This document shows, piece by piece, positions 6,720-25,765 of a stretch of DNA of 25,765 nucleotides. Made by a program: the position numbers and the translations under genes. The DNA comes from Myxococcota bacterium (lineage in GTDB: Bacteria; Myxococcota; JACRCW01), in the NCBI GenBank assembly GCA_040752415.1, contig JBFMGU010000154.1, positions 1-25,765 of the forward strand. The letters are read 5' to 3'. The notes beneath the pieces were generated by a model that was not told where the DNA came from, ran no database searches, and worked only from the letters and a program-made list of their open reading frames with translations. How positions within the stretch are numbered: position 1 is the stretch's first letter; each line of letters begins with the position of its first letter.

Positions 6720-6842
6720 GAGGTCATCCTAGCCGGTGATGCAGGTGCCAACCCATGCTAGATGGTGGCGCACATGAAGACGACGCTCGCGCGTGGGAAT
6801 GGCGACGGAAACCTGCGCGCGACGCATGAGAGGGGAAACACC

Positions 6843-9816: not shown

Positions 9817-9989
9817 GTACCGGGTCAGAAGTTCCTTCACCGAACACCTCGATCCAAGGCGGTATTTCAGACCGCGCTCCCAGATTGCCGGCCGCGCCAT
9901 CCCATGGGGCGGAGAAGCCCGCACTACCGCTTTGGCTCGGGCAGTCCGGGCTCACCGGGGCTCCGCCACATGTAAACGAAGTTGTTCCC

Positions 9990-10260
9990 GAAGTTGTCAC
10001 GCCGCTTGGCCTCCGTCTGGCAGAGGGCGCCCGCTGGTCCGAGCGAAAGCGGCACTTCATGCCGCAGTCCGAAAGTGCCGGCGGCGTTCGCTCTCGTGGC
10101 AAGGGCCGGCACGTTCCCCGACGTGGCGCGGGTGCGGGCGTTCGCAATTTCACGAATCGGAGTGGTGCCCGCACCCTTTCGGACTGCGGCATGAAGTGCC
10201 GCTTTCCCTCGGAGTAGCGGGCGCCCTCTGCCAGACGGAGGTCAGCGGCGTGACAACTTC
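9990..10260. repeat. 271-bp REP/REPIN-like element with ~85-bp inverted arms
   Basis: Arms 9990-10075 and 10176-10260 are near-perfect reverse complements. Each contains the palindrome AAAGCGGCACTTCATGCCGCAGTCC. Lies between convergent genes. Confidence 0.85.
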
Positions 10261-10278
10261 CACGGGAACCGCCGTAGG

Positions 10279-11184
10279 TCACTCCGACGAGGCGCGCGCA
10301 AGACCGGAGAGCGCCTCCCGTTTCACCGCCTCCATGCCTTCCTGGTGCCCATACGCAGCCAACGTTGCGGCCAGGAACAACGCCAGCACGCGCGCGCGCA
10401 CCAAGGAAGCCTCCTCGACCGGACCATATGCCGCCAGGAAATCCTTCCGCGCTGACGACGGGAGGAAGCTCCACATGAGCTGCAGGTCCACGCCCGGGTC
10501 ACCCTGGTGCAGGTCCCCCCAGTCAATGATGCCGCTCAGCGCTCCGGCCTCGTCGACGAGGAGGTGGCGGAAGTGCAGGTCGCCGTGCAGCAGCGCGCGC
10601 GGGGTTGGAGACGGAAGGCGCGCCGCGCCGTCGAGAAACCGCGGCACGGGTGAATCCCACAGACCCAGCGTGCGCAGCTCCACCAGTCGCGCAACCGTCT
10701 TGGGTACGCGTGCTGCCATGTCCGCACGGCCCATGGGATCCACGGGCACGTCGTCACGGAAGGTCCGGTGGACGTCCGCGTCATGCAGCGCGCGCAGGAA
10801 CGTGCCCAGCGGCCGGGCCAGGGCGGCGCGCGCATCGTCGGAGAGGGCGGCCTCCGCGGATTCCCGACCGCGCACCAGCGCGCAGCCGAAGAAGGGCCAC
10901 GGGAACTCCGCGCACGGCGTGCCCAGGTGCACCGGGGCGGGAACCGGGAGCGGAAGACGCGGCGCCAGGCGCGGCATCACCGCCATCTCCCGACGCACCC
11001 CCGGTAGCGCCACCTCCCGACGAGGAAAGCGGAACACCAACGTGTCATCCACCAGGAACACCGTGTTGTCCCAACCCGCACCCAGCAAGGTCACGCGCCG
11101 CGCTTCCACGTCGGGAAACTGGCTGCGGATGAGCTGCGTCGCCAGCTCGGCCGTCACGGTGATTTCAGCGCGCCACTCCGCCAT
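10279..11184 (-). CDS. Aminoglycoside phosphotransferase (APH/choline kinase) family protein
   Basis: GAGWDN, VFRFPR, Brenner motif HGDLHFRH, and IIDWGD. Confidence 0.9.
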   Translation of the reverse strand: MAEWRAEITVTAELATQLIRSQFPDVEARRVTLLGAGWDNTVFLVDDTLVFRFPRREVALPGVRREMAVMPRLAPRLPLPVPAPVHLGTPCAEFPWPFFGCALVRGRESAEAALSDDARAALARPLGTFLRALHDADVHRTFRDDVPVDPMGRADMAARVPKTVARLVELRTLGLWDSPVPRFLDGAARLPSPTPRALLHGDLHFRHLLVDEAGALSGIIDWGDLHQGDPGVDLQLMWSFLPSSARKDFLAAYGPVEEASLVRARVLALFLAATLAAYGHQEGMEAVKREALSGLARASSE

Positions 11185-11255
11185 GGGCGCACCCTAGCAG
11201 GAGCGGCGCTTGCGTGACCGGCCCGCGGCGGACAAGGTTGGGGCAGGAGCATCCG

Positions 11256-11561
11256 ATGAAGGCATTCTTCGCGGGCATCAAGGCCAAGGACATCGTCGAC
11301 AAGGTGCGAGGTGCGTTGCAGGGTCGCAAGCTCGGTGAGATGAGCCGCCTGGATGTCCAGGGCGACCGCATCGTCATGACCATCTCCAAGCTGGGCACGT
11401 CCGTGCTGGAGTTCCAGACCACCGAGCGGCCCGACGGGACCGAGGTGGCGCTGGTGGCCGAGAAGCTCGCGCTGGCGCACCGGGCGCTGCGCGGTGAGGT
11501 CAAGGAGAAGCTCGCCAAGGTCGTCGAGAAGGCCGGCGGGAAGGTCCTCTCGCTGGATTGA
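11256..11561 (+). CDS. Hypothetical protein (101 aa)
   Basis: AGGAG RBS, ATG at 11256, strong GC3 codon bias, globular-looking sequence. Confidence 0.75.
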   Translation: MKAFFAGIKAKDIVDKVRGALQGRKLGEMSRLDVQGDRIVMTISKLGTSVLEFQTTERPDGTEVALVAEKLALAHRALRGEVKEKLAKVVEKAGGKVLSLD

Positions 11562-11645
11562 TCCCGCCGCCGGGATGTCCGCGCCCACGCTCAACACGGC
11601 GCGCAGCGGCCGCGGATCCTCGACGGGAACCGCATGTGCCCGACG

Positions 11646-11987
11646 TCAACCCTTGCGACCCAGCCGACGCGTGGAGCCCTTGAGCTGACGCCCGCCGGTG
11701 CGTCGGCCCGGCGGTTTCCCACCCACCCGACCCGCGCGTGGGGCCGCGGGCGCCTTGGTACGACGCACGGGCGCCGCTTCACTCACCTTCCGTCCCGGAC
11801 GCACGTTCTTGCGGGTGGGCGAGACGGCTTCCGCCTGGTGTGACTCGCCGCGACGTCGAACCGTGTGCGTCTCCTGCCCGCCGGTCTTGCGCTTGTGACG
11901 CCCGCCGCGATGGTGACCCAACTCCTCGGCACGGTTCACCGCACGTTTCGCCCTGTTCTTCTCGGTGAGGATGGTCCTTCTGGGCAT
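11646..11987 (-). CDS. Small, very basic Arg/Lys/Gly-rich hypothetical protein
   Basis: GAGGGAACCACC precedes the ATG. 113 aa, fills the intergenic gap in the same orientation as its upstream neighbours. Confidence 0.6.
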   Translation of the reverse strand: MPRRTILTEKNRAKRAVNRAEELGHHRGGRHKRKTGGQETHTVRRRGESHQAEAVSPTRKNVRPGRKVSEAAPVRRTKAPAAPRAGRVGGKPPGRRTGGRQLKGSTRRLGRKG

Positions 11988-12048
11988 GGTGGTTCCCTCG
12001 GAAGGTGTGAGGGGTGTTGTAGTGACGGCGCGCTCCCCCCGCAGGAAC

Positions 12049-13212
12049 TCACTGGCAGACGTCCACCTGGAGCTCGAAGGTGAAGTCGCAACCGTCCGTG
12101 GAGTCGTTGGCCGTGGTGTACCGGTTGCCTTCGTTGTCGAAGTAGCTCACGTCGCTGAAGCCGATGAGCGCTTCCAGGTCAGCCTCCGGCACCGCCACGC
12201 CATTCACGTAGTCCGCCAGCGCGCTGGGAACACCCTGCACCAGGGTGCCGTCGCCACGACGGAAGTGCAGCAGCCAGGCCTCGGGGCAGGGTTGTGGCGG
12301 CACGTGCTGGTTGGTGCCGTTGGGATAGATGCGCGCAATGCTCACACCCGCCACGGACGTGAGCACGACGCGCTGGCCCGGTTGCAGGTTGGTGCCGTCG
12401 AAGAGGCGCAGCGGCGCCCACCCGTCGCGGACCTCCGTCTGGTACCAGTGGACGGCGTCTTCGTGCGTGGCCTTCACGTCGGTGTGTGACTCCTGGGCCG
12501 CGGTCTGCGACGTGCACGTCAGGCACTGGTTGTCCACGCAGGTGAGCGGAGCCTCGCAGTCCGAGGGCACGTTGCACGCCCCGCCGCTGGAGCTCGACGA
12601 GCTGGACGTGCTGGAAGAGCTGGACGAGCTGGAGGAACTCGATGAGCTGGAGGAGCTCGACGCGCTGGAGGACGATGAGGAGACGGATGCGCTGGACGTT
12701 GCGCTGCTCGCGGTGCTCACGGCGGTGCTGCTGCTCGCGCTGGTGGAGGTCGTCATCGCGGTGGAGGTGCTCGCCGCGCTCGCCGAGGAGGAGGTCGTTC
12801 CGCCGTCACTGCGGCTGGTGGTGGTGCTCCCTCCCGCGGATGAGGAGGTGCTCACCGCGCCGCTGGATGACGACGAGCTGGTGGCGCTGCCCGAAGCCGC
12901 GCTCGAGTTGGCTGACGCGCTGCCGCCTGACGCCGAGGATGACACCGTCCCCGACGAGGAGGACGCGCTGGACGACTCCTCGGTGACCACCGTGGCGGGC
13001 ACGCAGACCTCACCGTTGCACGTGGTGCCGCTGGGACACGTCTCGCCCGCGGCGCACGTCTGACGGCACCGCGCGTCCACGCACGCGTATCCCGCGGCGC
13101 AGTCGGCGGCTTCCTCGCAAGCATATTCACCGGCGGTGGGACACGCGGAGAGGGCCAGCGTCACCAGCGCGGCGCTGATGCCACAGGAGCGGAGGGCATT
13201 CCGCGGCGTCAT
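12049..13212 (-). CDS. Cys-rich lipoprotein with long Ser/Thr linker
   Basis: Lipobox LALSAC, Cys-rich repeats (CEEAADCAAGYACVDARC), a poly-Ser linker, then a C-terminal globular domain. The start could be slightly upstream (up to 13248). Confidence 0.8.
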   Translation of the reverse strand: MTPRNALRSCGISAALVTLALSACPTAGEYACEEAADCAAGYACVDARCRQTCAAGETCPSGTTCNGEVCVPATVVTEESSSASSSSGTVSSSASGGSASANSSAASGSATSSSSSSGAVSTSSSAGGSTTTSRSDGGTTSSSASAASTSTAMTTSTSASSSTAVSTASSATSSASVSSSSSSASSSSSSSSSSSSSSSSSTSSSSSSSGGACNVPSDCEAPLTCVDNQCLTCTSQTAAQESHTDVKATHEDAVHWYQTEVRDGWAPLRLFDGTNLQPGQRVVLTSVAGVSIARIYPNGTNQHVPPQPCPEAWLLHFRRGDGTLVQGVPSALADYVNGVAVPEADLEALIGFSDVSYFDNEGNRYTTANDSTDGCDFTFELQVDVCQ

Positions 13213-13270
13213 GCGGACCATGAGAGCCAGCACGCACCGGACTGTCAAGATGGTTTCCTGGTGGCGCGGC

Positions 13271-14530
13271 TCACTGCGTGATGGGTGTGCGCTGGCAGTC
13301 GTACGTCACGTCGGTGGTGGGGCCGTGGTCAATGACCTCGAAGTCCGTGGCGCTCAGCGCCGCCAGCGAGAACGGGTCAAATCCCACGTCCGCCCATTTC
13401 ACGGTGCTGAGCACGTCGCTCTGCGCGGTGAGCGTGATGCGCCCGCCGTCAGCCAGGTACATGCCGTAACGCTGCAGCGCGCGCGCCACCACCTGCGCGG
13501 CGGGGTCCAGGTTCTCGACGGGGTAGTCCGCGCGCAGCCGCATGTGGAAGCCATAGGGCCCCGACGTGGTGGGACCCGTGGTGTTGGTGCCGTGGGTGGC
13601 CGGCGCCACGTAGCGACGTTGGCGGATCATGTCGTTGGGAAGGATGAAGCGGAGCGCGTGGTTGATTTCTCCCGCCGCAATCTCCTCGGGCGTGAACAGC
13701 AGCGGGGCGATGGGGAAGCCCGCCGCATCCGCGCTGGTGCACTGCTGGCCGCGGCCATCCGCGCTCACCGTCTGCGTGTCCCAGATGGCCAGGCAGCCGG
13801 TCCGGAACGTGTCGGTGTCGTCGATGGTGGCGTGGTAGACCTCGTAGAGGCGGTTCTCGCTCCGCGCGACGAAGAGCATGTGACAATCCGCGCCGTCGTC
13901 GAAGCCGCCGCAGTTGTAGCCGCTGAACGGGCTGCTGAGCTCGGTGGGCGTGCCATACGTCTCCTCCACCGCGCCATAGGGCGTCACCGGGATGGCCGCG
14001 GTGTCGCAGTCCGGCGTGTAGAAGTAGCCCTCCACCGACTCGTGCGTGCGCTTGGTCGTCCCCGCCGGCACCTCCACCGCCACGATGCTGAAGTCCACCC
14101 GCATGTCCTCCGTGCCCCAGCCGTGCGGCGGCGAATGGCCCACCATCCACGACGTGATGTCCGCGCTGTCGGCGGCCACCGGCGCGTTGGTGACATCCTG
14201 GTACCAGGGCGCGTTGTCCGGGAAGTAGCGCGTCACCGTCTGCACCGCGGGCGCCGCCAGACCGGTCCCGCTGCTCGACGACGTCGACGCTGCGCCGGAG
14301 GATGACCCCGCGCCGGAGCTGCTGGTGCCCGTTGCCGCGGTGCTGGTGCTGCCCGCTCCCGAGGAGCTGCTGCTGGAGGACCCCGCCGAAGAGGACACCG
14401 ACGTGGTGGCGCCGTCTTCCGTGGGCTCGGTGGACGTGGTGGGACAGCCGGACCCGGCTTCCAGCACGGTGATGATGCCGCCGAGCAGGGCAGCGTGGCG
14501 GAGGACGGGATGCGGCGCGGATGCGTGCAT
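13271..14530 (-). CDS. Putative lipoprotein with Ser/Thr linker and uncharacterised globular domain
   Basis: Signal-like N-terminus ending AGSGC, Ser-rich linker, then a domain with GADCHMLFV, CTSADAAGFPIAPLL, INHALRF and ALQRYGMYLADGG. Start at 14530 inferred. Confidence 0.8.
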   Translation of the reverse strand: MHASAPHPVLRHAALLGGIITVLEAGSGCPTTSTEPTEDGATTSVSSSAGSSSSSSSGAGSTSTAATGTSSSGAGSSSGAASTSSSSGTGLAAPAVQTVTRYFPDNAPWYQDVTNAPVAADSADITSWMVGHSPPHGWGTEDMRVDFSIVAVEVPAGTTKRTHESVEGYFYTPDCDTAAIPVTPYGAVEETYGTPTELSSPFSGYNCGGFDDGADCHMLFVARSENRLYEVYHATIDDTDTFRTGCLAIWDTQTVSADGRGQQCTSADAAGFPIAPLLFTPEEIAAGEINHALRFILPNDMIRQRRYVAPATHGTNTTGPTTSGPYGFHMRLRADYPVENLDPAAQVVARALQRYGMYLADGGRITLTAQSDVLSTVKWADVGFDPFSLAALSATDFEVIDHGPTTDVTYDCQRTPITQ

Positions 14531-14664: not shown

Positions 14665-15474
14665 TCAGTGAGCGCGGGTGCGCGCGGCGTCGAGGGCCCG
14701 TCGGTACGCGCTGCCCACCTGCGCAGTGACCAGGCGGCGGGGCAGCACCTTGGCCAGCGCGGCGCCAATGCGGTTGGTCACGCCGGGAACGTACAGCTCC
14801 TCCCGCCTTCGGAAGGCGTCCAGTCCCAGCCGCGCCGCGGTCTCCACCGGCATGGTCCACGCGCGCAACCTGGCGAAGCGCTCTCCCGACGTCATCTCGG
14901 TGTCGATGCCGCCCGGCGCGTAGGTGGTGATGGACAGCTGGCGACCGCGCAGCTCGTGGGAGAGGCCACAGCCGTAGTGCACCAGGAAGGCCTTCGTTGC
15001 GGAATAGGTGGTCTGGTAGGGCACGGGCAGCAGCCCCGCCATGCTGGCCACGAGCATGATGCCGCCGCCGTCATTGCGCTGCTCCATGGGCTTGAGCAGC
15101 TCCGTCGTCATGCGCACCACGCTGGTGACGTTGGTGGAGAGCATGGACTCGAAGTCCTCCCACCGCTGCTCCTGGAACGCGCCGAAGTGGGTCACGCCCG
15201 CGTTGAGCACCGCCGCATGCGCCTGCCGCTCGTTCGCGCGCGCGATGACGCGCACCACGTCGTCGGGCTTGGCCAGGTCGGCGGTGACGGGCTCCAGCTC
15301 CACGCCGGTGCTTTTCAGCTCGTGTCGCAGCTCCTCCAGCCTCTCGGTGCGACGCGCCACCGCGATGACGTGGGCCCCGTGCTCCCGCGCCAGCTGCTGC
15401 GCCATGGCGCGCCCCAGTCCCGACGACGCTCCCGTCACCAGCACCCAGCGTCCGCGGAAATCCATCGGTCTCAT
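14665..15474 (-). CDS. Short-chain dehydrogenase/reductase (SDR)
   Basis: TGASSGLG, NAG, catalytic S...YSATK. Confidence 0.93.
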   Translation of the reverse strand: MRPMDFRGRWVLVTGASSGLGRAMAQQLAREHGAHVIAVARRTERLEELRHELKSTGVELEPVTADLAKPDDVVRVIARANERQAHAAVLNAGVTHFGAFQEQRWEDFESMLSTNVTSVVRMTTELLKPMEQRNDGGGIMLVASMAGLLPVPYQTTYSATKAFLVHYGCGLSHELRGRQLSITTYAPGGIDTEMTSGERFARLRAWTMPVETAARLGLDAFRRREELYVPGVTNRIGAALAKVLPRRLVTAQVGSAYRRALDAARTRAH

Positions 15475-15588
15475 GCGGCAGGCTCCCCTTCCGGGTTGTT
15501 GGCCCGGTTGCCCGCCGCCATAGCACGCGAGGACGCCCGCGGGGTCATCTCCGACGAGACGTGGCCTACCCGCAGCTCCAGCGCCAGC
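15462..15588 (+). repeat. Direct repeat, left copy (at least 127 bp)
   Basis: CCATCGGTCTCATGCGGCAGG...CAGCTCCAGCGCCAGC is identical by eye to 25639-25765. Confidence 0.95.
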
Positions 15589-15591
15589 GGC

Positions 15592-15908
15592 TCACTGGCT
15601 CTTCTCGTACGTCCCCATGATCTGGGCGTTGGCCAGCACGTGCCCCTTCATGGCTTGCTCCACGACGGCCTTGGTGGCGTTCTTGAGGTTCAGCGTGGTG
15701 TCCAGCGCGTAGAGCTTGAAGAAGTAGCGGTGACGTCCCACGGGAGGACACGGGCCGCCGTACGCGTGCTTCTTCCAGTCGTTGAGCCCCACGGTGCCGC
15801 CGCGCGGCGCGCTGCCTTCCTGCGCCTCGGTCACGTCGGGCGGGATGTTGTAGACCACCCAGTGCACCCAGGTGGTGCGGGGAGCGGCCGGGTCGGGAGC
15901 ATCCGGGT
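15592..15908 (-). pseudogene. ybhB: YbhB/YbcL (PEBP/RKIP-like) protein, 5'-truncated
   Basis: PDAPDPAAPRTTWVHWVVYNIP and YGGPCPPVGRHRYFFKLYALD are present. Homology stops just upstream of PDAP, and no family-like N-terminus is seen in the translated upstream frames. Confidence 0.8.
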
Positions 15909-16034
15909 GGGGAAGGGGCTTTCGGCAGGCCCAGTGGGGCAAGTTGAGGCGGCCACTCCAACCGGATTGCCCTTCCGTTGTTGGCCAGGTCCTCTTCGTG
16001 CCAGCCTCCGGGAGGCATGGTTGGAGTCCGCCCG

Positions 16035-16313
16035 GTGACGCGCACTCGATTGAGGTCGAGCCTGGTTCACTCCGTCGCGTACGACGCAGACACCCACGTC
16101 CTCGAGATCGAGCTTTCAGGGCGACGCCTCTACCGCTTCTTCGCGGTTCCGCGCGACGTATATGAGGGGCTGCTGCGAGCTGAGTCGAAGGTCACGTTCT
16201 TCAACCGGGAGATCCGCCCCAAGTTTCCCTTCGAGGGGCCCAAAGATAGACCCCATCGCCTCTTGACGGCCGCCGATGGAGCAGGGCATGACACTGAACA
16301 TGCGGCCAGCTGA
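16035..16313 (+). CDS. KTSC-domain protein
   Basis: GTG start after GGAG. SSLVHSVAYDADTHVLEIEL..RLYRFFAVPRDVYEGLLRAESKVTFFNREIR matches the KTSC pattern. Confidence 0.85.
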   Translation: MTRTRLRSSLVHSVAYDADTHVLEIELSGRRLYRFFAVPRDVYEGLLRAESKVTFFNREIRPKFPFEGPKDRPHRLLTAADGAGHDTEHAAS

Positions 16314-17493
16314 ACACATGCCATTTGAAACCTTCGGCGTCATGCGTCGCGACCGCGAGCCGCTTTTGCGGTTCATGCTCGACGCGCTCGAGCGTGTTGG
16401 CTGCAGAGTGCTGCGAGCATCTCAGCCAGATACCGCGCCCTTCCAGTTCTCTTTCGTTACGCCGACGGGGGAACGAATGGGGGTGGTTGCGTACGCGTTC
16501 TATGCGAACTCCCGACTGACAAAGAACCGGCCCGACGACGAATACCGCTTTCAGATCAAGTACGGGTCGAAGGACGGCAAGGAGCATCGCCTCTGGCAGG
16601 ACCATTTCGGTTTGTACACCACGCTTCTCGTCGGAATCAGCCCCGAGGAGGGCTTCTTCGTCGGCGCTGACCCAGTCCTCAACAGTCCGACGAAGTTTTT
16701 CATCTCGAAGGAGTTCAAGCGCGCGCGTGTGGAGCATGTCATTCGCGACGGTTGGCATACGTGGGAGCGAGACCGCCGAGCGGGGGATGAGAGTCCCGTC
16801 GAGGTGCTCGTTGGCGGCACGGCGCACGCCTTCCTCCGGTACGTGCGACTCGAGCGAGAGGCGCTCGGAGAGGACCAAGGCCATCGGCAGTTGCTCGCAG
16901 AGCGCGCAAGCGACCCGGCGTGGGTGGGCACCATCGTGCGACAGGTCCCCGCGCCCGACGTGGTAGCAGTTCCAAATCAGATTCACCGCCTCGCTGAGGA
17001 GTTCGAGCTGCGAGAGGCGGAGGTGCTGGACCTCATTGCGCAAACGCGCCGGCTCAAAATGGCAGTGCGTGGTTGGGTTGCGGAGGAACATCTGCTGAGG
17101 CGGCTGAAGGCCGTGTCGGGCGTGACGGACTGCGCCCGCCTCGATGAGGAAGGCGGGCCGGACTTGCGTCTGCGCTACCGAGGTAGTCGGCCGCTCTCTA
17201 TCGAGTGCAAGAACGTTTTGCGTCAGCGAACACGAGAGGGTCTTCCGCGCGTGGATTTCCAGCGGACCAGAGCGTCGAAGTCTGATCCGTGCTCGAGATA
17301 CTATTCGGCGTCCGACTTCGACGTGCTCGCGGCCTGTCTTCACGCCGTGATAGAGCAATGGGAGTTCTCATTCGCTCTGCCGCGGACGCTCGATGCCCAC
17401 GCGAAGTGCAAAGGGAAGCTGTCCAACAACGTTCGCGTCGACGACCGATGGCAGCGACAGGCCGAGGTCATTCTGGCACAGGCCGCCGCGTGA
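16276..17493 (+). CDS. Putative restriction-like endonuclease: N-terminal methylase-associated (MTaX1-like) domain plus C-terminal PD-(D/E)XK nuclease
   Basis: C-terminal GWVAEEHL...GPDLRL...IECKN is an E...PD...ExK active site. Ends 10 nt upstream of the methylase. Start uncertain (ATG at 16276, 16288, 16300 or 16318). Confidence 0.72.
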   Translation: MEQGMTLNMRPAEHMPFETFGVMRRDREPLLRFMLDALERVGCRVLRASQPDTAPFQFSFVTPTGERMGVVAYAFYANSRLTKNRPDDEYRFQIKYGSKDGKEHRLWQDHFGLYTTLLVGISPEEGFFVGADPVLNSPTKFFISKEFKRARVEHVIRDGWHTWERDRRAGDESPVEVLVGGTAHAFLRYVRLEREALGEDQGHRQLLAERASDPAWVGTIVRQVPAPDVVAVPNQIHRLAEEFELREAEVLDLIAQTRRLKMAVRGWVAEEHLLRRLKAVSGVTDCARLDEEGGPDLRLRYRGSRPLSIECKNVLRQRTREGLPRVDFQRTRASKSDPCSRYYSASDFDVLAACLHAVIEQWEFSFALPRTLDAHAKCKGKLSNNVRVDDRWQRQAEVILAQAAA

Positions 17494-17503
17494 GGAGCCC
17501 GCC

Positions 17504-18748
17504 ATGAGCAGGAGACAACCGCGCATCATCAGCCTCTACACGGGCGCCGGCGGGATGGATTACGGATTTGAGGCGGCAGGCTTTCGCACTGCGGTTGCCG
17601 TTGAGATGAACCACGATTGCTGTGAGACATTGCGCCGCAACCGTCGCTTTCCGGTCATCGAGTCAAGCATCTTTGACGTCGCGAGTGAGGTGCTCCTTGA
17701 AACCGCGGGCTTGAAGCACGGTGAGGCGGATCTGCTCATCGGAGGTCCGCCGTGTCAGCCGTTCTCGAAGTCGGGTTACTGGGCTACCGGCGATTCACGT
17801 CGTCTCGACGATCCTCGCGCGGATACTCTGAGTGCGTACTTGCGTGTCCTCGAAGAGACACAGCCCGCGGCTTTCGTCCTCGAGAACGTGACCGGCATTG
17901 CGTACTCGGGAAAGAGCGAGGGTCTAGATCTCTTGGTTGACGCTGTTCGCCAGATCAATCGCCGCACCGGTTCGCGCTATGAGCCCGTGTACAAAGTGAT
18001 CAACGCGGCCACATATGGCGTGCCCCAGATTCGAGAGCGCTTCTTCATGGTCGCAGCGCGGGATGGCACGACCTTCAAGTTCCCAGCAGCGACTCACGGC
18101 GAGGTCGACCATGACGCCGGTGGCCTTTTTCAGATTGTGAAGCCGTACGTCCGCGCTTGGGATGCACTCGCGGGCCTTATGCCCGAGCCTGAAGAGGACC
18201 TGGCCATGCGAGGAAAGTGGGCGGACCTTCTGCCGACGATTCCCGAGGGGCAAAACTACCTGTGGCACACGGAGCGTGGTGGTGGAGAACCCCTCTTTGG
18301 GTGGCGACGACGCTTCTGGACGTTCCTCCTCAAGCTCGCAAAGGCTCTTCCCTCGTGGACAATTCAAGCGCAGCCGGGCCCTGCTGTCGGGCCCTTCCAT
18401 TGGGACAATCGACGGCTGAGCGTGCGTGAACTATGCCGCCTTCAGACGTTTCCCGACGACGTGATTCCGGTCGGTGGCCGCACGTCCATACAGAAGCAGG
18501 TGGGTAACGCGGTGCCGTCGCTCCTGACCGAGGTTTTGGGACGCGCCATTCGTGCCCAGCTACTGGAGGGCGGTGGGCCACGCGGAGAGCTGTCACTGCT
18601 TCCGCGTGATCGTGGAGATCCGCCCCCGCCACGTAAACCTTCGACGGTGCCACGCCGGTTCCTCCGCCAGCGCTCCCGAGACACGGCGCATCCTGGGACA
18701 GGCAAGGGCAGAGGCGCGGTTGCTCGGGCTCAGGAGTCGGCGCTTTGA
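17504..18748 (+). CDS. dcm: DNA (cytosine-5)-methyltransferase
   Basis: Motif I SLYTGAGG, IV GGPPCQPFS, VI ENV, VIII QIRERFF, IX RLQTFPDD, X QVGNAVP. GAGGAG RBS. Confidence 0.95.
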   Translation: MSRRQPRIISLYTGAGGMDYGFEAAGFRTAVAVEMNHDCCETLRRNRRFPVIESSIFDVASEVLLETAGLKHGEADLLIGGPPCQPFSKSGYWATGDSRRLDDPRADTLSAYLRVLEETQPAAFVLENVTGIAYSGKSEGLDLLVDAVRQINRRTGSRYEPVYKVINAATYGVPQIRERFFMVAARDGTTFKFPAATHGEVDHDAGGLFQIVKPYVRAWDALAGLMPEPEEDLAMRGKWADLLPTIPEGQNYLWHTERGGGEPLFGWRRRFWTFLLKLAKALPSWTIQAQPGPAVGPFHWDNRRLSVRELCRLQTFPDDVIPVGGRTSIQKQVGNAVPSLLTEVLGRAIRAQLLEGGGPRGELSLLPRDRGDPPPPRKPSTVPRRFLRQRSRDTAHPGTGKGRGAVARAQESAL

Positions 18749-19212
18749 CGCCGACGCAGGTGGCGCACGACCGCGCGTACCGCCCCCTCGGGATCCTTCA
18801 GCACGTCCGTCTCCCACACCCTGACGACGCTCCAGCCATCTGCACGGAGCGTCCGTGCAACCCGGCGGTCTCGAGACCGATTCGCGGCGATCTTGGCGAC
18901 CCAGTATTCGGGATTGGCGCGTCCTCTAAGACGAGTCTGAAGCGACGGCCAATGGCGACCGTGCCAAAAGTCTCCGTCACAGAAGACCGCCAAGAGGGCT
19001 GTCCTGAACACGATGTCGGGCTTGCCGGGCAGGTCGGCGCAGTGCGTCTCGAAGGCCAGACCCTTTGCCTTGAGGGCGCGTACCAGCGTGCGTTCCGCCT
19101 TGGTCTCCGTCGATCGTACGCTCCGCTTGATGCGCGACGACGTCTCGGATGCCGGCTTGAATCGTGAGTAGGGAGGGACCTTACTCATGTTCGCGATCGT
19201 GGGTGTCACCAT
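18730..19212 (-). CDS. vsr: Very short patch repair endonuclease
   Basis: TKAERTL, LPGKPDIVF, FCDGDFWHG, YWVAKIAANRSRD and GWSVVRVWE. Start at ATG 19212 (overlapping the upstream stop) or 19188. Confidence 0.93.
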   Translation of the reverse strand: MVTPTIANMSKVPPYSRFKPASETSSRIKRSVRSTETKAERTLVRALKAKGLAFETHCADLPGKPDIVFRTALLAVFCDGDFWHGRHWPSLQTRLRGRANPEYWVAKIAANRSRDRRVARTLRADGWSVVRVWETDVLKDPEGAVRAVVRHLRRRQSADS

Positions 19213-21275
19213 TCATCTCGCTCAAGCCAAAGCAACAGGTCCCGTTGCTCACTCAGCATTCCGGGCGCCCTGTCGCGCGCAGCAGACTTCAGCCGTCGGA
19301 CCACCCGACGGCCGTCTCGGAAACTTGAGAGATAGGCAATAACAAGCCGAAACGTCTCGACGTTTGTCGCCGCGCGAAAAACGGTTTCTGCTGGCCATTC
19401 GTCCGACGTGACCGCGTCTGCGAGCGCTCGCCGACAACGCTCGCATCGATCCCAGTTTGAGAACATTCCGAGAGCAGGGAAAAGCGATGACGCCTGGTCC
19501 CAGGCTCCCAGCGACACCTCTTGCTTGCTTAACGCGTCATGCGCGGCTTGAAAGGAAGCCTCCGCGAGGCGATTTGCCCGCGAGCCGACGGCCAATGCAC
19601 AACTGAAGAGGAACAGTCCGACGTCGCCACGGAGGGAACGCCTCGGCGTTGTTGCAATCGCTAACCACCTATCAGCACCGACGCGCTCGACCTCTCGACT
19701 GCGTGGGTCTGCGTATTGTGCGGCGGTGTCAAGAGCCGCCTGCGGTACGTCAGGGGCCGTCGCAAGCCAACGAACAAGAGCGCCGATTCGCCCTGTCAAC
19801 ACATTCCGCCAACGCCAAGTCAGTCTGGCGGTAGGATGCAAGACGCACCAATCCAAGAGATGACTAACGACATCATCGCCCCAGGTGCGGACCACGTCGT
19901 CCACGAGATCGTCGCTCCCCGCGTCGAGCATGCTCTGCACAATGTCTTTCCGAAGTGCAGCATCGGCGGCTGCAACGAGCGCGAACACCTGCCGCTGCTC
20001 CCAGGCCGACCGACGCCAGATAGCCGGTGACGCCGCGACACGTGCATCCTCCCGCACGAGATGGCAGAACACATCGATTCCATGGCCGAGTAGCTCCTTC
20101 GGGCGTTCGCGCAATAGGGTCGCCGTCACCGCTCTCAGCACCGCATCACGCAATTCGGATCGCGGCAGAACAAGGCAACTGCTGAGCAGCCGCATGCCAG
20201 CTTCAGGGTCTTGCCGGACGATGTTCTCAGCGCGCTCGCCAACTTTGAGACTGCCCGGGTCAAAAGCATCGGGTCGTGCTACCGACACAAGAGCCTCGAG
20301 CAGGCGGTCGTCGGAGCCGTCCGCTGGCGCCCCCAACAGGTCCTCCTTAAGCAGGCGCATCTGTCCTGCTGATTGGAACGCTTCACCGACGGTGCGCACG
20401 AGCGCAGAGTAATCCCTTGAGCGCTCGCTGTGTCGTCGGGCGTTGAAGATCTCCACCAACGTTGCGAACGCGGCGCGCGGCGGGTCAGCCTCTGCGCCAT
20501 ATCGCCAAAGAAACCGTCGAAGGTCCCGTGAGTCACTCTCGATGTCATCTAGAGCTGCCGCCAGCCAGGGCTCCGCTGGAGGCAGCGTGTCAACGAGGGA
20601 AAGCTCCTGCAGGTCGGCCTTTTCTCGTCGCCACCGCGTCGCGCCGACCCTAGTGGTGAATTGCAGGTCAAGCGGCCTGCCGCCGAGGGAGCGTGGGCGT
20701 CCGGACCACGTGCAGAAGGCAAAGCTGCGCCTCAGCCGCGGCCATTGTTGCGACCAGACGGCGAGAGTCGCCATTTCGACATCCGACGACGTCGCCGCGA
20801 CAGCCCACACCGCGCGGTCCGGATACTGATACAGGCCCCTGAGAATCGCCGACAGAAGCTCATGAGGCGGCACCCCATCGCGCGTCGCGCCTTTCACCCG
20901 TACGTCAACCGCTTCGCGGTAAGTGCTCCAGTCGCTGGAATCGATTTCAGCTTGGCCGGGACGCCGGAGTTCACCGAGGAGCGATCGCGCGTCGGACAAC
21001 TCCGCCAAGTCCTGAAAGTCTACGAGCAAACTGTGCGTCCAGGCGCATCCGGGTCGTGGGCGCTCTGGGGCCGACCACGTTCGCGCGAGGACGTAGAGTC
21101 CCGGCTCCGGTAGAGCATAGCCCGTTAGATACGACTCGTCGGGCGCCATGCTTGTCTGACCGGATAGGTCACTCATTGCGAGCATGGTCCGCAGAGCGTG
21201 AGGCGGAAGCTTCACGCTCGCTCCGAGCAGTTCGTGCCCGGCGCCGTACCCATGAAGCGCCTGCTCAACGCGCAT
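19206..21275 (-). CDS. GTPase-associated protein 1 (GAP1-N1 domain plus helical C-terminus)
   Basis: N-terminus QALHGYGAGHELLGAS...SDLSG...YLTGYAL...YVLARTWSAPERPRPGCAWTHSLL, then WSQQWPRLRRSFAFCT, fits GAP1-N1 proteins. Lies directly downstream of two GTPases. Confidence 0.8.
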   Translation of the reverse strand: MRVEQALHGYGAGHELLGASVKLPPHALRTMLAMSDLSGQTSMAPDESYLTGYALPEPGLYVLARTWSAPERPRPGCAWTHSLLVDFQDLAELSDARSLLGELRRPGQAEIDSSDWSTYREAVDVRVKGATRDGVPPHELLSAILRGLYQYPDRAVWAVAATSSDVEMATLAVWSQQWPRLRRSFAFCTWSGRPRSLGGRPLDLQFTTRVGATRWRREKADLQELSLVDTLPPAEPWLAAALDDIESDSRDLRRFLWRYGAEADPPRAAFATLVEIFNARRHSERSRDYSALVRTVGEAFQSAGQMRLLKEDLLGAPADGSDDRLLEALVSVARPDAFDPGSLKVGERAENIVRQDPEAGMRLLSSCLVLPRSELRDAVLRAVTATLLRERPKELLGHGIDVFCHLVREDARVAASPAIWRRSAWEQRQVFALVAAADAALRKDIVQSMLDAGSDDLVDDVVRTWGDDVVSHLLDWCVLHPTARLTWRWRNVLTGRIGALVRWLATAPDVPQAALDTAAQYADPRSREVERVGADRWLAIATTPRRSLRGDVGLFLFSCALAVGSRANRLAEASFQAAHDALSKQEVSLGAWDQASSLFPALGMFSNWDRCERCRRALADAVTSDEWPAETVFRAATNVETFRLVIAYLSSFRDGRRVVRRLKSAARDRAPGMLSEQRDLLLWLERDEW

Positions 21276-22152
21276 TGGGACGCGCCATGCGTGCGATCAG
21301 CGAGGCTATCGGACGCGTGATGTCGTGGCTGACTGCCTGGCCGTCGTCCACGACCGGTCGCTCGTGTGGTGCAAGTTTTTTCAGATGGTCACGTTGCTGC
21401 TCAGAGGTATAGTCCCCGCCCTGCGCGCTTATCCCGACGACATCGCACGGCAGCTGCTCATTCCCATCAAGGAACTGCGACAACAGCGGCAGTCGCTGCC
21501 TGAGCCAGTTCCGTGGTCCTTTGGTTTGGTCTCTCCATATGTCCCACGCGGATATGATTACGACCGCAGGCAGGGGGTGTCCGGCACGCCGCTCTGTCAT
21601 CAGTTGCAGAAGCTCTACGAGCATCACCTGCGTCGCGCAAATGTCGGCCGTCCACTCTGGCAACGGCGCCTGCACGCTTTGGGCAGACGGTGCGGACGCC
21701 GCGTCAGCGGCAACGTCTGCGACCTCGGCTGCAATGAGCTGCGCGTCGTCAAGGCGATGAGGGTCCTTGACCTCTGGCCCGATGAAGAAAAGCAAGCCCG
21801 TACACTGTGAAACGAGTTCGTCAAACTGGCGCGCCCAAGAACGATCGATGACGTGTCGTTCTACGCGCTCACCTGAGATGTCGGGAACTGAAAGCCTGAG
21901 GCGCTGCCCCGCGTCTGTGCGCAAGGCCAGCTCGATGTGCTCGTGACGGTCGACATCCGTTCTGCCAACTGGTTCGAACTTCAGCCAGCGATCTCGGATC
22001 TCGGCGAGGTAGCTCTTGTCAGAGTCAGTCACGCTGTCGACTGCAAGCGCGCTCTTGTCGGCGTCCATCAAGGCGTTCCACAGCGCTGCGATGAACGTCG
22101 TCTTGCCCGACCCATATGGCCCGACGGCGAGAAGGCGGACTTCATCAATCAT
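21265..22152 (-). CDS. TRAFAC-class GTPase of double-GTPase system (downstream copy)
   Basis: G1 GPYGSGKTT, G2 GRTD, G3 DISGE, divergent G4 SAWD. ATG at 22152 overlaps the upstream stop. Confidence 0.85.
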   Translation of the reverse strand: MIDEVRLLAVGPYGSGKTTFIAALWNALMDADKSALAVDSVTDSDKSYLAEIRDRWLKFEPVGRTDVDRHEHIELALRTDAGQRLRLSVPDISGERVERHVIDRSWARQFDELVSQCTGLLFFIGPEVKDPHRLDDAQLIAAEVADVAADAASAPSAQSVQAPLPEWTADICATQVMLVELLQLMTERRAGHPLPAVVIISAWDIWRDQTKGPRNWLRQRLPLLSQFLDGNEQLPCDVVGISAQGGDYTSEQQRDHLKKLAPHERPVVDDGQAVSHDITRPIASLIARMARPNAR

Positions 22153-23125
22153 GAGGCCGCGCCTCCCAGGCGCCATACCGCAAGAACGCCCGTGACGATT
22201 GCAGGTGCTGCGGGAGACGCTGATCAGTTGCAGGAAACTCGGATGTCCACGTCGAAATTAGCGCTTCAACTCCATTGCCCCACGTCAAACCGCGTCCATT
22301 GCGGGCTGCGGTGGAGTGGAGGCCGAGAGTTGGCGCATTGGTGATCGGCAACACCTTGGAAAAGCGGAACATGACGTCATCCGCGTTCGCCTGGCCTACG
22401 TCGACAAGATCGTGTTTCGTGATGACTACTTGAACGCCGGTCGCCCTTCGCAGCGCGCCGACCTCGCCCAGGCTTCGTATGAGGTGCGTGGATCTCGCTA
22501 CGCACGCGTGTCTCTTCGTCGGATCGGAGAGCATCAGTCCATCCAGTGTGACGACGACGGCGTCGGCCCGTTTCACGATTGGCAGAAGAGCGCTTTCAGA
22601 CGGACGGTCTCGCAGTTCGGCGAAGTGCTCGCCGGAGATGTCCGTGAACAGCAAGTCGATTAACTGGTTGGCCGTCTTGCGAACCCCAAGGTGCAGAAAC
22701 CGTGGTTCATCGTCGGCGTCTGTTCGTCGGGTGGCCGGCTGTTCGCGACCGCTGGTGATGCGAGCCTCGAAACAACGACGCTCGAAGCCGTGCAGAGTGA
22801 CCGAGCGAGCGAACCTGTGCTCGCGTGCAGCACCCGCCCCAAAAAGCTCAAAGACGGTGGCGAGAAGAGTCGTCTTCCCACTCTCAACGTCACCAACAAA
22901 GACGACGAGCCGCGCAGGCCATCGCCCCATCACAGTGGCCGTCTCCGCCGCGGAGAGCGCCTCTGCATCCCGGAGCGCGATCCCCTCTTCCGGCTTGGCC
23001 CGCTTCGGCGCGGCTGGCACCGCGCGCTTGCGCCAATGCGGACACTCCTCGAGCGCTAGCCCTTCGAGGCACTTGCCGGTGCTCGCTGCCGAGCAGCCGC
23101 TCTGAGGACAGGGTTGCTCAGCCAT
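22145..23125 (-). CDS. TRAFAC-class GTPase of double-GTPase system (upstream copy) with N-terminal Cys cluster
   Basis: G1 GDVESGKTT, G2 RRTD, G3 DISGE, G4 TKHD. N-terminal CPQSGC...C...CPH. Confidence 0.85.
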   Translation of the reverse strand: MAEQPCPQSGCSAASTGKCLEGLALEECPHWRKRAVPAAPKRAKPEEGIALRDAEALSAAETATVMGRWPARLVVFVGDVESGKTTLLATVFELFGAGAAREHRFARSVTLHGFERRCFEARITSGREQPATRRTDADDEPRFLHLGVRKTANQLIDLLFTDISGEHFAELRDRPSESALLPIVKRADAVVVTLDGLMLSDPTKRHACVARSTHLIRSLGEVGALRRATGVQVVITKHDLVDVGQANADDVMFRFSKVLPITNAPTLGLHSTAARNGRGLTWGNGVEALISTWTSEFPATDQRLPQHLQSSRAFLRYGAWEARPHD

Positions 23126-24161
23126 TCTTGTTCTCGGTCACGAGGCGCAGGGCGATTCGCTCTGCGAACAGCTGCTCAGATAGCTCCAGTGGGCGTAGGG
23201 CACGCGCGGCATCCTGCTGCTTGCCCTGCCCGGCAAGGACCGCGTGTATCGGCAACAGGTCATGCAGGGACATGACACCCTCCTCCGTCACGCGGTCCCG
23301 GACCTTTGCGCTTGTCGCTTCCAAGACCTCATTGAGCTTGAGCTGTGAATCGAGGTCAATCTTACCATCGATGAGCGCGCGTCTGAGGAAGGCGCGGGCA
23401 TTCGGTGGCGGAGGGACAAGTGCAAACCTGTCAGCCAGCTCGATTGCTATCACGACCGGAAGCGCTGGGCGCTTCACGTCGGCGAATTGTTGCTCAGCAA
23501 GGTCGCTCCAATTGGAGAAAAGCCACCAGAGCACGTCGGATTCCTCACTGGCTGCATCCGACCGAGACTCAACGACCTCGCTCAGCTCGGAGACGCACTC
23601 GTGGAGCTTGGCAAGAGCATCATTCACACCGTCCACAAACTTCTTGAAGATCGCTACGTCTGGCGGCACAGTGAGCTTCTCAATTTCCGTTAGGGCCCCC
23701 TTGATGGGCTTTCCTGGGTAGGCCGGAACGGCAGGGAACTCGACGTCAGGATCGCGGAGCCGCTCTGCTTCCTCAAGCAAGACGGCTGCCGCGGCAGCGC
23801 GTAGCGTGTCGTTCACCGGCTTCTGTTCACTGAACCGCAGGCAGTTGATAAGTGCCGCTCCGGCGAGAGCCGCGGGTCCGGCGTTCTGCAACAAGGTCGC
23901 TAAGGCAGCGCCAGCCAGAACCTGCAGCTCATTGTCGTTGCGCATCAAGAACGACGCATCCGCTTTCTTGAACGCGCTTCTCAGAGAGTCTGCGTAGGTG
24001 CTGTCTGCGGCAAGCCGATGAGCGAGGCGAACCAGTTGTGGAACAGTCTCACGCTTTGCCGCCTTGACTATCTCCGTCACGCCTGACCAGCGTTTCTCGA
24101 GCGCCTCCGCGTCAGTGCCCAAGCCCGCTTCGGAATACCAATCGGCGAATAAGTCGTGCAT
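23118..24161 (-). CDS. GTPase-associated system all-helical protein (GASH-like)
   Basis: 347 aa, helical composition. FADWY, KRWSG, NELQVLAG and EESDVLWWLFSNWS. GGAG RBS. Position within the operon fits. Confidence 0.75.
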   Translation of the reverse strand: MHDLFADWYSEAGLGTDAEALEKRWSGVTEIVKAAKRETVPQLVRLAHRLAADSTYADSLRSAFKKADASFLMRNDNELQVLAGAALATLLQNAGPAALAGAALINCLRFSEQKPVNDTLRAAAAAVLLEEAERLRDPDVEFPAVPAYPGKPIKGALTEIEKLTVPPDVAIFKKFVDGVNDALAKLHECVSELSEVVESRSDAASEESDVLWWLFSNWSDLAEQQFADVKRPALPVVIAIELADRFALVPPPPNARAFLRRALIDGKIDLDSQLKLNEVLEATSAKVRDRVTEEGVMSLHDLLPIHAVLAGQGKQQDAARALRPLELSEQLFAERIALRLVTENKNG

Positions 24162-24170
24162 GGTCCGCTC

Positions 24171-25505
24171 CTACTGCTGCGATTGAGAAAAGGGATTGCT
24201 CTTGGCTCCGTCGGGATACTGCGCTTCAACTGCGTCCCAAAGCGCTGCAACCACGCGGCGTTCCTTCGCGCGTGCAAAGAGTCGACGGCTCAGTTCTGGG
24301 TCATTCACTCCCTGATCACTGTCATCGATGAGTTCAAGCTTCGCCGCGATTGTCATGCGCTTATGAAACGGTAGGCTCAGGAACCTATGGACGAGCGTGC
24401 GATGCGGATTCATAGGTGCCTCTTGGCGCCCCACCGCCGGTGATGCGGTCGGCCCTGGCTGAGCAGGAAGGGCTTGCGCGGCGGCGGGTGCTGGTGTTGA
24501 CGGGCTCCATGCCGGCAGGCTGAGGAAGTATTGGAAGAAATCTCGGCCCGTCCTGGGATCGCGCTCGGCGACGAACTCCTTCGAGTCAGACCAAATGCGC
24601 GAGTACACCCGCACGTCGAGGCGCCGGTTGTTCCCGCTTCCGTTGACGCTGATCGCGAGTGCATTGAATCGTGGAATCCACTTTGGCTCCCTGCGATTCG
24701 GATGGACCGCACCAGCGACGATTCTTAGATTGCCGTCGATCTCCGAGCGTGTTTGGACGTGTTTGTGCCCGAAAAGTTGGAGTCGGACCCGTGCCCGGAG
24801 ATCACTCTCGACGGTGTCGACATCCCGGAGCCAATTCGGAGGGTGATGGCACAACGTCATGTGAATCACGCCTTCGAGACGGGGCAGATTCGTTTGTGCG
24901 GCCCCGAGAATGAGCCGCCCGTCGCCATCGCTGTCGTCGTCATCGGAGACGAGCGTTGAGTTGAGCCCTGACAGGCGCAGGGTGGATCCGTCATTCAGCT
25001 TCAAGTCACTCTGCCAAAAGGGTCGTTCGCGACTCACGTCGCACTCGAACCGCATCGCAAACAGGTTGTACTCGGTGAGCGGCTCAAGAAGCAGATTGCA
25101 GCTCGCTGGCTCCTGCATGTATCCCCGCAGACGGTCGTCGAGTTCTTCAAGGGTGCACGTCCTGAAAGCCTTGTGCGCGTCTCTCAGGATGCCGCATTCG
25201 CGGATGCGCTTTCGGTCGACGTCGTGGTTTCCCGGGACTGTCCAAACCATGTCGGTCGGACATTTCGCGATGGCGCACAGCGCGTCCAGCCATGTGGCGG
25301 CCTTTTCGTACTCAGTTCGGGCTCCGCTGTATGCGATGTCACCAGTGACGATGATGCCAGTGGCCGACCCCAACTGTTGCACTAGGACTCCAACGTCGCG
25401 CTCGACCTCGTCGCGGAGGTCCTTGTCCAAGTCGAACCGCGTGCCGTCGCTGTGCTTGTTGAAGTGTACGTCGGAGAGGTGCAGGAGCCAGAGCCTTGTC
25501 TCCAT
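24171..25505 (-). CDS. Calcineurin-like metallophosphoesterase fused to a C-terminal GAAD-like adaptor domain
   Basis: All five motifs present: HLSDVH, TGDIA, GNHD, CHHP, GHKH. A Pro/Ala linker follows, then helical RTLVHRFLSLPFHKRMTIAAKLEL...LFARAKERRVVAALWDAV. ATG at 25505. Confidence 0.88.
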   Translation of the reverse strand: METRLWLLHLSDVHFNKHSDGTRFDLDKDLRDEVERDVGVLVQQLGSATGIIVTGDIAYSGARTEYEKAATWLDALCAIAKCPTDMVWTVPGNHDVDRKRIRECGILRDAHKAFRTCTLEELDDRLRGYMQEPASCNLLLEPLTEYNLFAMRFECDVSRERPFWQSDLKLNDGSTLRLSGLNSTLVSDDDDSDGDGRLILGAAQTNLPRLEGVIHMTLCHHPPNWLRDVDTVESDLRARVRLQLFGHKHVQTRSEIDGNLRIVAGAVHPNRREPKWIPRFNALAISVNGSGNNRRLDVRVYSRIWSDSKEFVAERDPRTGRDFFQYFLSLPAWSPSTPAPAAAQALPAQPGPTASPAVGRQEAPMNPHRTLVHRFLSLPFHKRMTIAAKLELIDDSDQGVNDPELSRRLFARAKERRVVAALWDAVEAQYPDGAKSNPFSQSQQ

Positions 25506-25638
25506 GAAGTCCCCGTGGTCTGGGAGGCCCAGCCGAGTTCTGGCGAACTGTCGGCCCGGAGCGGTTGCCGGGTCAATGGTTTCGGATGTTATCCTATACC
25601 TGATCTCGCAGTCCGAAACGGATCCCGACCCGCGCGCC

Positions 25639-25765
25639 CCATCGGTCTCATGCGGCAGGCTCCCCTTCCGGGTTGTTGGCCCGGTTGCCCGCCGCCATAG
25701 CACGCGAGGACGCCCGCGGGGTCATCTCCGACGAGACGTGGCCTACCCGCAGCTCCAGCGCCAGC
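25639..25765 (+). repeat. Direct repeat, right copy (runs to window end)
   Basis: Identical by eye to 15462-15588. Includes a copy of the SDR start codon (25651) and its upstream region. Confidence 0.95.

Follow-up and report, generated by a model that had tools for sequence, protein, structure and literature searches.

Two independent defence cassettes probably share one island in a Myxococcota genome, bracketed by a long duplication of a ybhB gene end

Do nine tightly packed, convergently oriented genes form one layered defence system, or two systems that arrived together? The question is raised by a contig of a Myxococcota bacterium (GTDB lineage JACRCW01; GenBank assembly GCA_040752415.1, contig JBFMGU010000154.1, here C62), which in its entirety is the window that we analysed (25,765 nt, forward strand), and which belongs to a genome (G000) of 11 Mb, 68.9% GC and 520 contigs. 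One half of the gene run holds a 5-methylcytosine (m5C) methylase gene (dcm), a nuclease gene with an MTaX1 domain and the mismatch endonuclease gene vsr, and the other is an operon of two DO-GTPases with GAP1, GASH and a phosphoesterase effector. A first-pass annotation had proposed that the nine genes may act as one layered unit, with a methylation-based nuclease as the first line and a GTPase-gated phosphoesterase behind it. We consider it highly probable that the locus is instead a small defence island, in which two independent cassettes of known kinds and a KTSC-domain passenger were delivered together and inserted with a long target duplication.

Each half was sought in the neighbourhood of the other, using profiles built from the window proteins and their matches in the loci. 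The GTPase system was represented by 94 loci (80 from GTDB genomes, being the best 80 of at least 250 confirmed loci, with 2 viral loci and 12 from the phylum), and the MTaX1 nuclease by 96 (the best 80 of 351 metagenome loci, 70 of them distinct, and 16 from the phylum, chosen from 27 matches, mostly with full-length nuclease frames). Neither MTaX1 nor dcm was found in any of the 94 GTPase loci, and a wider MTaX1 profile still found none in the 80 GTDB loci. A vsr gene occurs in one of these 80 (L095), 5.7 kb beyond GAP1, 44% identical and with no methylase, and dcm, vsr and MTaX1 are all absent from the 12 phylum loci and the 2 viral ones. At least 3.5 kb beyond GAP1 is covered in 60 of the 80 GTDB loci, and the dcm profile is sensitive enough to detect unrelated methylases on host contig C46 (102 bits) and at locus L193 (112 bits). 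Pfam analysis of 118 open reading frames (ORFs) downstream of GAP1 returned integrases, transposases, other defence genes and housekeeping genes, with no methylase or Vsr.

Looking from the other side, no GTPase-system gene was detected in the 96 MTaX1 loci, whose neighbours are mixed (by Pfam, 61 of 105 listed) and include GmrSD three times. Among 400 genomes of the phylum, MTaX1 occurs in 26 and DO-GTPase 1 in 12, and no genome has both, where about 0.8 would be expected by chance, kin not being independent. Plasmid records, 16 with the GTPase and 2 with MTaX1, likewise have none in common; the 16 GTPase plasmids, 10 of them predicted to be conjugative, come from Aeromonas, Klebsiella, Pantoea, rhizobia and others. 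The divergence of the two halves is also unequal, the nearest GTPase 1 relatives being at most 41% identical and the nearest MTaX1 relatives 58-67%. Rare co-occurrence had been named in the annotation beforehand as the outcome that would speak for ordinary clustering, and it is what all three surveys returned (0/94, 0/96 and 0/400), so that the idea of a conserved nine-gene unit is not supported. Both cassettes belong to known kinds and as a rule stand alone, and the arrangement is therefore best seen as ordinary defence-island clustering and not as a new composite system.

As an inventory of genes, the annotation was sound. ORF and Pfam analysis recovered all nine ORFs, nearly gapless and in convergent arrangement; both halves are predicted defence modules by Pfam family and family conservation; and the catalytic motifs are whole, namely PPCQ and ENV in the methylase, PD296...E310-C-K312 in the nuclease, GKT and DISGE in both GTPases, and D-x-H, GD, GNHD, HH and GHKH in the phosphoesterase. 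The proposed span of 16035-25505 held for the genes and fell short of the island, which extends over 15909-25638 and has at its borders a direct repeat that had not been reported. The features are as follows.

15462..15908, no strand: left copy of a direct repeat of about 447 bp, comprising 13 nt from the start of an SDR gene, an intergenic stretch and the orphan 3' part of a ybhB/ybcL (PEBP) gene
15909..25638, no strand: foreign island of 9,730 bp, 62.2% GC against 68.9% for the genome, with no integrase or transposase ORF
16035..16313, plus strand: KTSC-domain protein (PF13619, E 9e-20)
16276..17493, plus strand: MTaX1 (PF20296) and PD-(D/E)xK nuclease, a probable restriction endonuclease; likely start ATG 16300
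17504..18748, plus strand: m5C DNA methyltransferase of the dcm family (PF00145; TIGR00675 above cut-off; PADLOC MTase_II); frame open from 17393
18730..19212, minus strand: Vsr T:G mismatch endonuclease (PF03852; TIGR00632 above cut-off); likely start 19188
19206..21275, minus strand: GAP1 of the GAP1-N1 type (PF20012, E 4e-28, residues 2-101)
21265..22176, minus strand: DO-GTPase 1 (PF19975, E 1e-60), with GxxxxGKT, DISGE and SAWD
22145..23125, minus strand: DO-GTPase 2 (PF19993, E 1e-44), with an N-terminal Cys4 zinc-ribbon motif, GKT, DISGE and TKHD
23118..24161, minus strand: GASH helical protein (PF19994, E 3e-17, 63 bits against a cut-off of 27)
24171..25505, minus strand: calcineurin-like metallophosphoesterase-GAAD fusion (PF00149 and PF19976), the putative effector
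25639..25765, no strand: first 127 nt of the right repeat copy, up to the contig end, identical to 15462-15588

The GC content of the island is matched or undercut by just 5 of 1,533 genome windows of equal size, and at third codon positions GC is 0.67-0.75 in its genes as against 0.92 in the flanking SDR gene. The KTSC gene lies outside both conserved cassettes and appears to be a passenger. Its homologues were absent from 162 related loci in a single-sequence search and from 28 further loci, and a paralogue is present on host contig C159. No tRNA was found in the window, and a generic scan for promoters and terminators gave matches at chance level only.

What, then, are the two cassettes? 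By its families, the half with five genes is one of the GAP1-N1 DO-GTPase systems that Kaur et al. (2020) predicted, and it carries the effector most often found in them. The passages of that paper that treat the subsystem (PMC7159879) define it by GAP1 and GASH together with a pair of DO-GTPases, of which one bears a zinc ribbon, give the calcineurin phosphoesterase as its commonest effector and the GAAD fusion as a frequent coupling, and mention no methylase or restriction-modification (R-M) partner. In the window, both DO-GTPase genes (PF19975 and PF19993, above cut-off) carry the Walker B glutamate within DISGE, the zinc-ribbon motif of DO-GTPase 2 consists of C6, C11, C19 and C28 as a predicted metal site, and GAP1 with its GAP1-N1 domain sits downstream of the GTPase genes. 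The metal-binding residues of the phosphoesterase are invariant in an alignment of its relatives. In the best 80 of at least 250 loci, GAP1 and GTPase 2 each accompany the family in 78, GASH in 75, GAAD in 65 and the phosphoesterase domain in 39. Of 30 GAAD proteins without phosphoesterase, 17 were tested by Pfam: 4 carry PNPase, 4 TIR/SEFIR and 9 no further family. All named GAAD effectors are nucleotide-related enzymes, and the phosphoesterase may therefore destroy a nucleotide pool or signal. The nine GAAD-fused effectors with no other Pfam family (L023, L027, L031, L032, L047, L052, L063, L076 and L083) are candidates for unnamed effector domains.

No experimental study of the GAP1-N1 DO-GTPase system was found in the literature searched. 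PADLOC, which models neither the GTPase half nor MTaX1, gave no more than MTase_II/DruM, Vsr and weak phosphoesterase matches. Membership in NCBIfam DS-8 or DS-9 was rejected, the matches lying far below cut-off and reflecting a shared domain only. A PDB sequence search gave no match for the phosphoesterase and only weak matches of the GTPase to SRP54 P-loops. Viral contigs yielded nothing to a single-protein GTPase query and two loci to an alignment query. Two loci hold decaying copies of the system: in L189 (G354:C2) GTPase 1 is split by about 2.1 kb and the phosphoesterase frame is broken, and in L180 the phosphoesterase is interrupted. Upstream of the phosphoesterase gene in the window (25506-25638), a perfect 8-bp inverted repeat with a 25-nt spacer encloses a -10-like hexamer, and is a possible operator of the GTPase operon.

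The second half is a conserved MTaX1-nuclease/m5C-methylase/Vsr cassette and, as far as can be told from gene content and motifs, probably a Type II R-M system. Of 8,000 candidates scored, 1,968 are relatives of the MTaX1 protein. In the comparison set introduced above (the best 80 of 351 metagenome loci and the 16 phylum loci), dcm accompanies it in 73/80 and 15/16 loci and vsr in 55/80 and 3/16. The genes come in 14 arrangements among the 70 distinct loci, the order dcm-nuclease-vsr being the commonest (17/70). The window methylase is 66-67% identical to those of MTaX1 cassettes, and its PPCQ, ENV, QxRxR and GNAV motifs are intact. At locus L115 the gene order of the window recurs, with a 15-nt overlap of dcm and vsr and with no GAP1. 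No MTaX1 was found in viral contigs. An analysis of palindrome avoidance revealed no recognition site specific to the cassette: CAGCTG, CTCGAG and AAGCTT were rejected because they are depleted in the GTPase control too, and GAGCTC because it is depleted in the host genome too. MTaX1 also occurs fused to HNH, AAA and HATPase domains, and in L111:1170-2339 an MTaX1-HNH nuclease stands directly upstream of an MTaX1-PD-(D/E)xK cassette.

The nuclease itself was modelled with AlphaFold2 (predicted local distance difference test score, pLDDT, 87.6) and has a C-terminal PD-(D/E)xK domain. The best fold match of this domain is I-Ssp6803I (Z 12.7, root mean square deviation (rmsd) 3.2 over 132 aligned residues), and it also matches the m5C-dependent enzymes NhoI (Z 7.7) and Eco15I (Z 6.0); in an alignment of relatives D296 and K312 are invariant and E310 nearly so. 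The N-terminal MTaX1 domain, modelled alone (pLDDT 96), again has I-Ssp6803I as its best fold match (Z 7.5, inside the grey zone of the tool, rmsd 3.5, 133 aligned), with further matches to the RecU-like structure 1y1o, Hjc and NhoI (Z 4.4), and the secondary structure of the model places APF and AYAF where PD and ExK would be expected. Foldseek gave no significant match for this domain, BLASTP found no similarity between the N- and C-terminal domains, and the MTaX1 alignment had no sequence match in the PDB. Because the Z score is in the grey zone and Foldseek was negative, a tandem restriction fold with an inactive first copy is only a lead: the model hints that MTaX1 could be a second restriction-fold domain devoid of catalytic residues, a notion that may already be in Krishnan 2020. 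A layout of one catalytic and one non-catalytic domain is known from Sau3AI, where the order of the two domains is reversed with respect to the MTaX1 protein.

A local link between the two halves probably lies in vsr. The annotation had correctly noted that the 3' ends of dcm and vsr overlap by 19 nt (18730-18748), and this overlap with a convergent vsr is a feature of the cassette, as at L115. Its further statement that the vsr start overlaps the GAP1 stop was mistaken, since the ATG at 19212-19210 is clear of the stop at 19208-19206, although the frames overlap by 7 nt. Homologues of vsr begin at the second ATG, 19188, 17 nt past the GAP1 stop. The window vsr is 58-59% identical to its closest relatives, which are the vsr genes of MTaX1-dcm cassettes, and 33% identical to another vsr of the host, so that by descent it is, on sequence identity, a member of the methylase cassette. 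Upstream sequence could be compared for 27 cassette vsr genes out of 60 BLAST hits. A TANNNT box stands 5-32 nt ahead of the ATG in 11 of the 13 genes in the lead position and in 0 of the 14 operon-internal ones, over a background of 7%. The window vsr has no such -10-like box, and the GAP1 stop occupies the place where the conserved box is expected, so that in this genome the gene is probably transcribed with the GTPase operon. To that extent the annotation, which had made vsr the last gene of that operon, is supported. The transcript link arose locally by accident and may have a selective consequence; it is not a trait of the family. In several other loci (L105, L108-L110, L112, L120, L126 and L172) the motif GCTAGRGTAACCT is kept between divergent vsr and MTaX1 genes, and may hold overlapping -10 boxes for both directions. 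The host carries two other vsr-like genes, one on C384 and one on C46, the latter in a cluster (C46:3400-7450) with a second m5C methylase (806 aa) and an HNH nuclease.

How did the island enter the chromosome? Low GC and flanking direct repeats support the view that the two halves lie on one co-acquired foreign block. The first 127 nt of the left repeat copy (15462-15588) recur exactly at the contig end (25639-25765), in an assembly made with k=127, where 36 contig-end overlaps of 127 are found as against 0-10 at other tested lengths. On a separate contig, C471:1-267 matches 15642-15908 at 98.1%, and C471 continues into an intact ybhB. Taken together, these two matches give a repeat of about 447 bp, of whose right copy 394 bp are seen and 53 nt are unassembled, and we infer that 25639-25765 continues, after those 53 nt, into C471:1-267 and the intact gene. 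Against the Pfam PBP model, the left ybhB copy covers only positions 36-135 and the C471 copy positions 2-122. All five differences between the repeat copies are synonymous third positions, which suggests that one copy came as an allele of a related lineage and is not a newly made duplicate of the target site.

Insertions of R-M genes with long target duplication were reportedly described by Nobusato in 2000. The marks of such events, as set out in the relevant part of Furuta et al. (2010; PMC2853133), are R and M genes in an insert of less than 20 kb, a duplication of more than 30 bp, no mobile-element gene, and a target kept intact by a repeat of the gene end; precedent duplications there measured 412-423 bp, and the model invoked breaks made by the R-M system. 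The island shows each of these marks, except that no empty allele was found, and its sequence fits an insertion with long target duplication. Similar scars occur elsewhere. In a single-contig genome (L179, G308:C1:11000500-11020400, at 4566-13957), the five-gene GTPase operon alone lies between 1,236-bp repeats, with 55.6% GC against 68%; its ORFs include neither an integrase nor an R-M gene. The repeats consist of a host MFS transporter gene end and are not insertion sequence copies, and 6 of their 7 in-gene differences are synonymous. Since this scar is found without R-M genes, it does not fit a requirement for R-M cleavage. In Mitsuaria sp. PDC51 (L093:4474-16879), a GAP1-N1 operon with extra ORFs is flanked by repeats of about 1.4 kb, 92% identical, of host DUF2938/flavodoxin-like genes, and repeats of at least 30 nt bracket 10 of 94 related loci with 2-kb flanks. 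In the host genome itself, 6 of 14 examined direct-repeat pairs duplicate the end of a host gene around cargo of lower GC, Pfam analysis of the cargo covering three of the six; the inserts lie on C51, C53, C95, C117 and C279 (two), with repeats of 73-905 bp. The insert on C53 holds an MmeI-family R-M cluster, and that on C95 duplicates the 3' end of a proA-like gene and the whole of rsfS.

With this in mind, one may outline how the island works and how it came about. In the first cassette, the methylase would mark host sites with m5C, the MTaX1-PD-(D/E)xK protein would cut unmarked incoming DNA, its N-terminal domain probably being a second DNA-reading module, and Vsr would nick the T:G mismatches that arise from deamination of m5C. 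In the second, following the mechanism of Kaur 2020, infection would be sensed by GAP1/GASH, the paired GTPases would change conformation, and the GAAD-tethered phosphoesterase, once set free, would degrade a nucleotide pool or signal and so arrest the infected cell. According to this outline the cassettes would have been joined in an earlier host, the join removing the promoter of vsr and leaving the gene on the GTPase transcript. Entry into the chromosome would most simply be by one crossover, in which a circle with a related ybhB fragment recombined with the resident gene; ybhB would thereby end up intact at one border and as an orphan 3' fragment at the other. Any layering of the two halves would then be additive and not mechanistic, and the guard or backup role proposed in the annotation finds no support in the comparisons.

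Several observations weigh against this account of two independent cassettes in one inserted island. The join of C62 to C471 is deduced from an assembly made at k=127. An empty site did not turn up, the SDR-ybhB region being present at high identity in 0 of 40 relatives' genomes. Seven duplicated gene segments elsewhere in the host genome show only 8 of 18 differences to be synonymous, so the signature of an allele swap is not general there. The negative result on the MTaX1 side is weaker than its counterpart, because these loci are often short and only 19 of the 70 distinct metagenome loci have at least 2 kb on both flanks. The probable dependence of vsr on the GTPase transcript is, finally, a real local link, and from it one could argue for a composite in the making: capture of vsr would tie the halves together, a cell that lost or silenced the GTPase operon would be exposed to a mutagenic methylase, and the phosphoesterase might serve as a guard should the R-M system fail. 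The single co-acquired block, the integrity of both halves, and a vsr that lacks the box of 11 of its 13 lead-position relatives and has the GAP1 stop in its place all accord with such a reading. We nevertheless hold it to be very unlikely, as no second case appeared in 94 and 96 loci or 400 genomes, the place of vsr is labile (55/80 loci, 14 arrangements), the host has two further vsr-like genes (C46 and C384), and the effector slot of the GTPase family varies without any R-M partner. An extended version of the idea, quite improbable in our judgement, adds to a methylase made dependent on an abortive-infection operon, through a vsr under the GTPase promoter, that the block spreads without an integrase, excising and inserting anew by homologous recombination through its ybhB repeat, a route that would also move lone GAP1-N1 operons, and that the nuclease is the first characterised member of a widespread family with two tandem restriction folds, one catalytic and one DNA-reading.

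Two other readings concern parts of the island. The MTaX1 nuclease could be modification-dependent (Type IV or IIM) and cut phage DNA with modified bases, the methylase being unrelated or an antidote marker. The m5C-dependent NhoI and Eco15I among its fold matches (Z 7.7 and 6.0), and the fusions of MTaX1 to HNH, AAA and HATPase domains, are in keeping with this, but an intact m5C methylase in 73/80 and 15/16 loci is the pattern of a cognate R-M pair, an m5C-dependent cutter beside an m5C methylase risks cutting its own genome, and the top matches of the N-terminal domain are restriction folds (Z at most 7.5, grey-zone scores) with no SRA, PUA or EVE reader among them; we regard this reading as rather unlikely. 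The flanking repeat, for its part, might be in part a product of assembly, arising from a 10,177-bp circle or tandem array (the island and one repeat) or from a second strain in the bin. With k=127 in the assembly, the contig does end exactly 127 nt into the repeat; a further 53 nt of the right copy are missing from the assembly, and contamination of the bin is 4.29%. Yet the host sequence joined to the two island ends is the same, five synonymous sites distinguish the copies, the island has no replication gene, and the same scar is seen inside other contigs of the host genome and around the same GTPase system in the single-contig genome of L179, so that a mere assembly effect seems distinctly improbable. 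Two independent cassettes, co-delivered and inserted with a long target duplication, remain the reading that we favour.

Apart from these genes, the window contains at 10007-10244 a 238-bp palindromic element with 69-nt inverted arms, resembling a miniature inverted-repeat transposable element or a repetitive extragenic palindrome, of which the genome has many partial and near-full copies in both orientations (199 BLAST rows).

What is new here is the delimitation of the island by a ybhB scar of about 447 bp, the local link of vsr to the GTPase operon, and the lead on a second restriction fold in MTaX1. The literature searched contained no experimental test of either system, and the block, intact, delimited and 9.7 kb long, is a convenient cloning unit. 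Its MTaX1-PD-(D/E)xK protein stands for a large family of probable restriction enzymes (1,968 of 8,000 scored), for which there is now a testable two-domain model, and the ybhB duplication and its twin without R-M genes at L179 bear on how integrase-free defence islands enter chromosomes.

Compared with known systems, the GTPase half is identical in composition to the GAP1-N1 DO-GTPase system (PF20012, PF19975, PF19993, PF19994 and PF19976 all being present) and in gene order to its relatives, and differs in the vsr after GAP1, which was found at no other examined locus. In the part of Rakesh et al. (2024, PMC10853773) that concerns MTaX1, citing Krishnan et al. (2020), the domain is called potentially modified-DNA-discriminating and is found with C5 methylases in R-M-like neighbourhoods. 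The window protein shares this association and differs in its fusion to a PD-(D/E)xK domain with catalytic residues, the isolated MTaX1 model seemingly resembling the same fold. A link of Vsr to m5C R-M genes is termed 'quite common' in the relevant passage of PMC2615612, and the M-R-V system McaTI treated there has in common with the window a cluster of m5C methylase, nuclease and vsr; the likeness is at the level of the gene cluster, the window nuclease being an uncharacterised MTaX1/PD-(D/E)xK protein with no PDB sequence match. With the insertions described in the portion of PMC2853133 cited above, finally, the island shares R and M genes within one insert (9,730 bp), a duplication of about 447 bp, a gene-end repeat and the lack of an integrase or transposase, and beyond what is described there it holds a complete second defence system.

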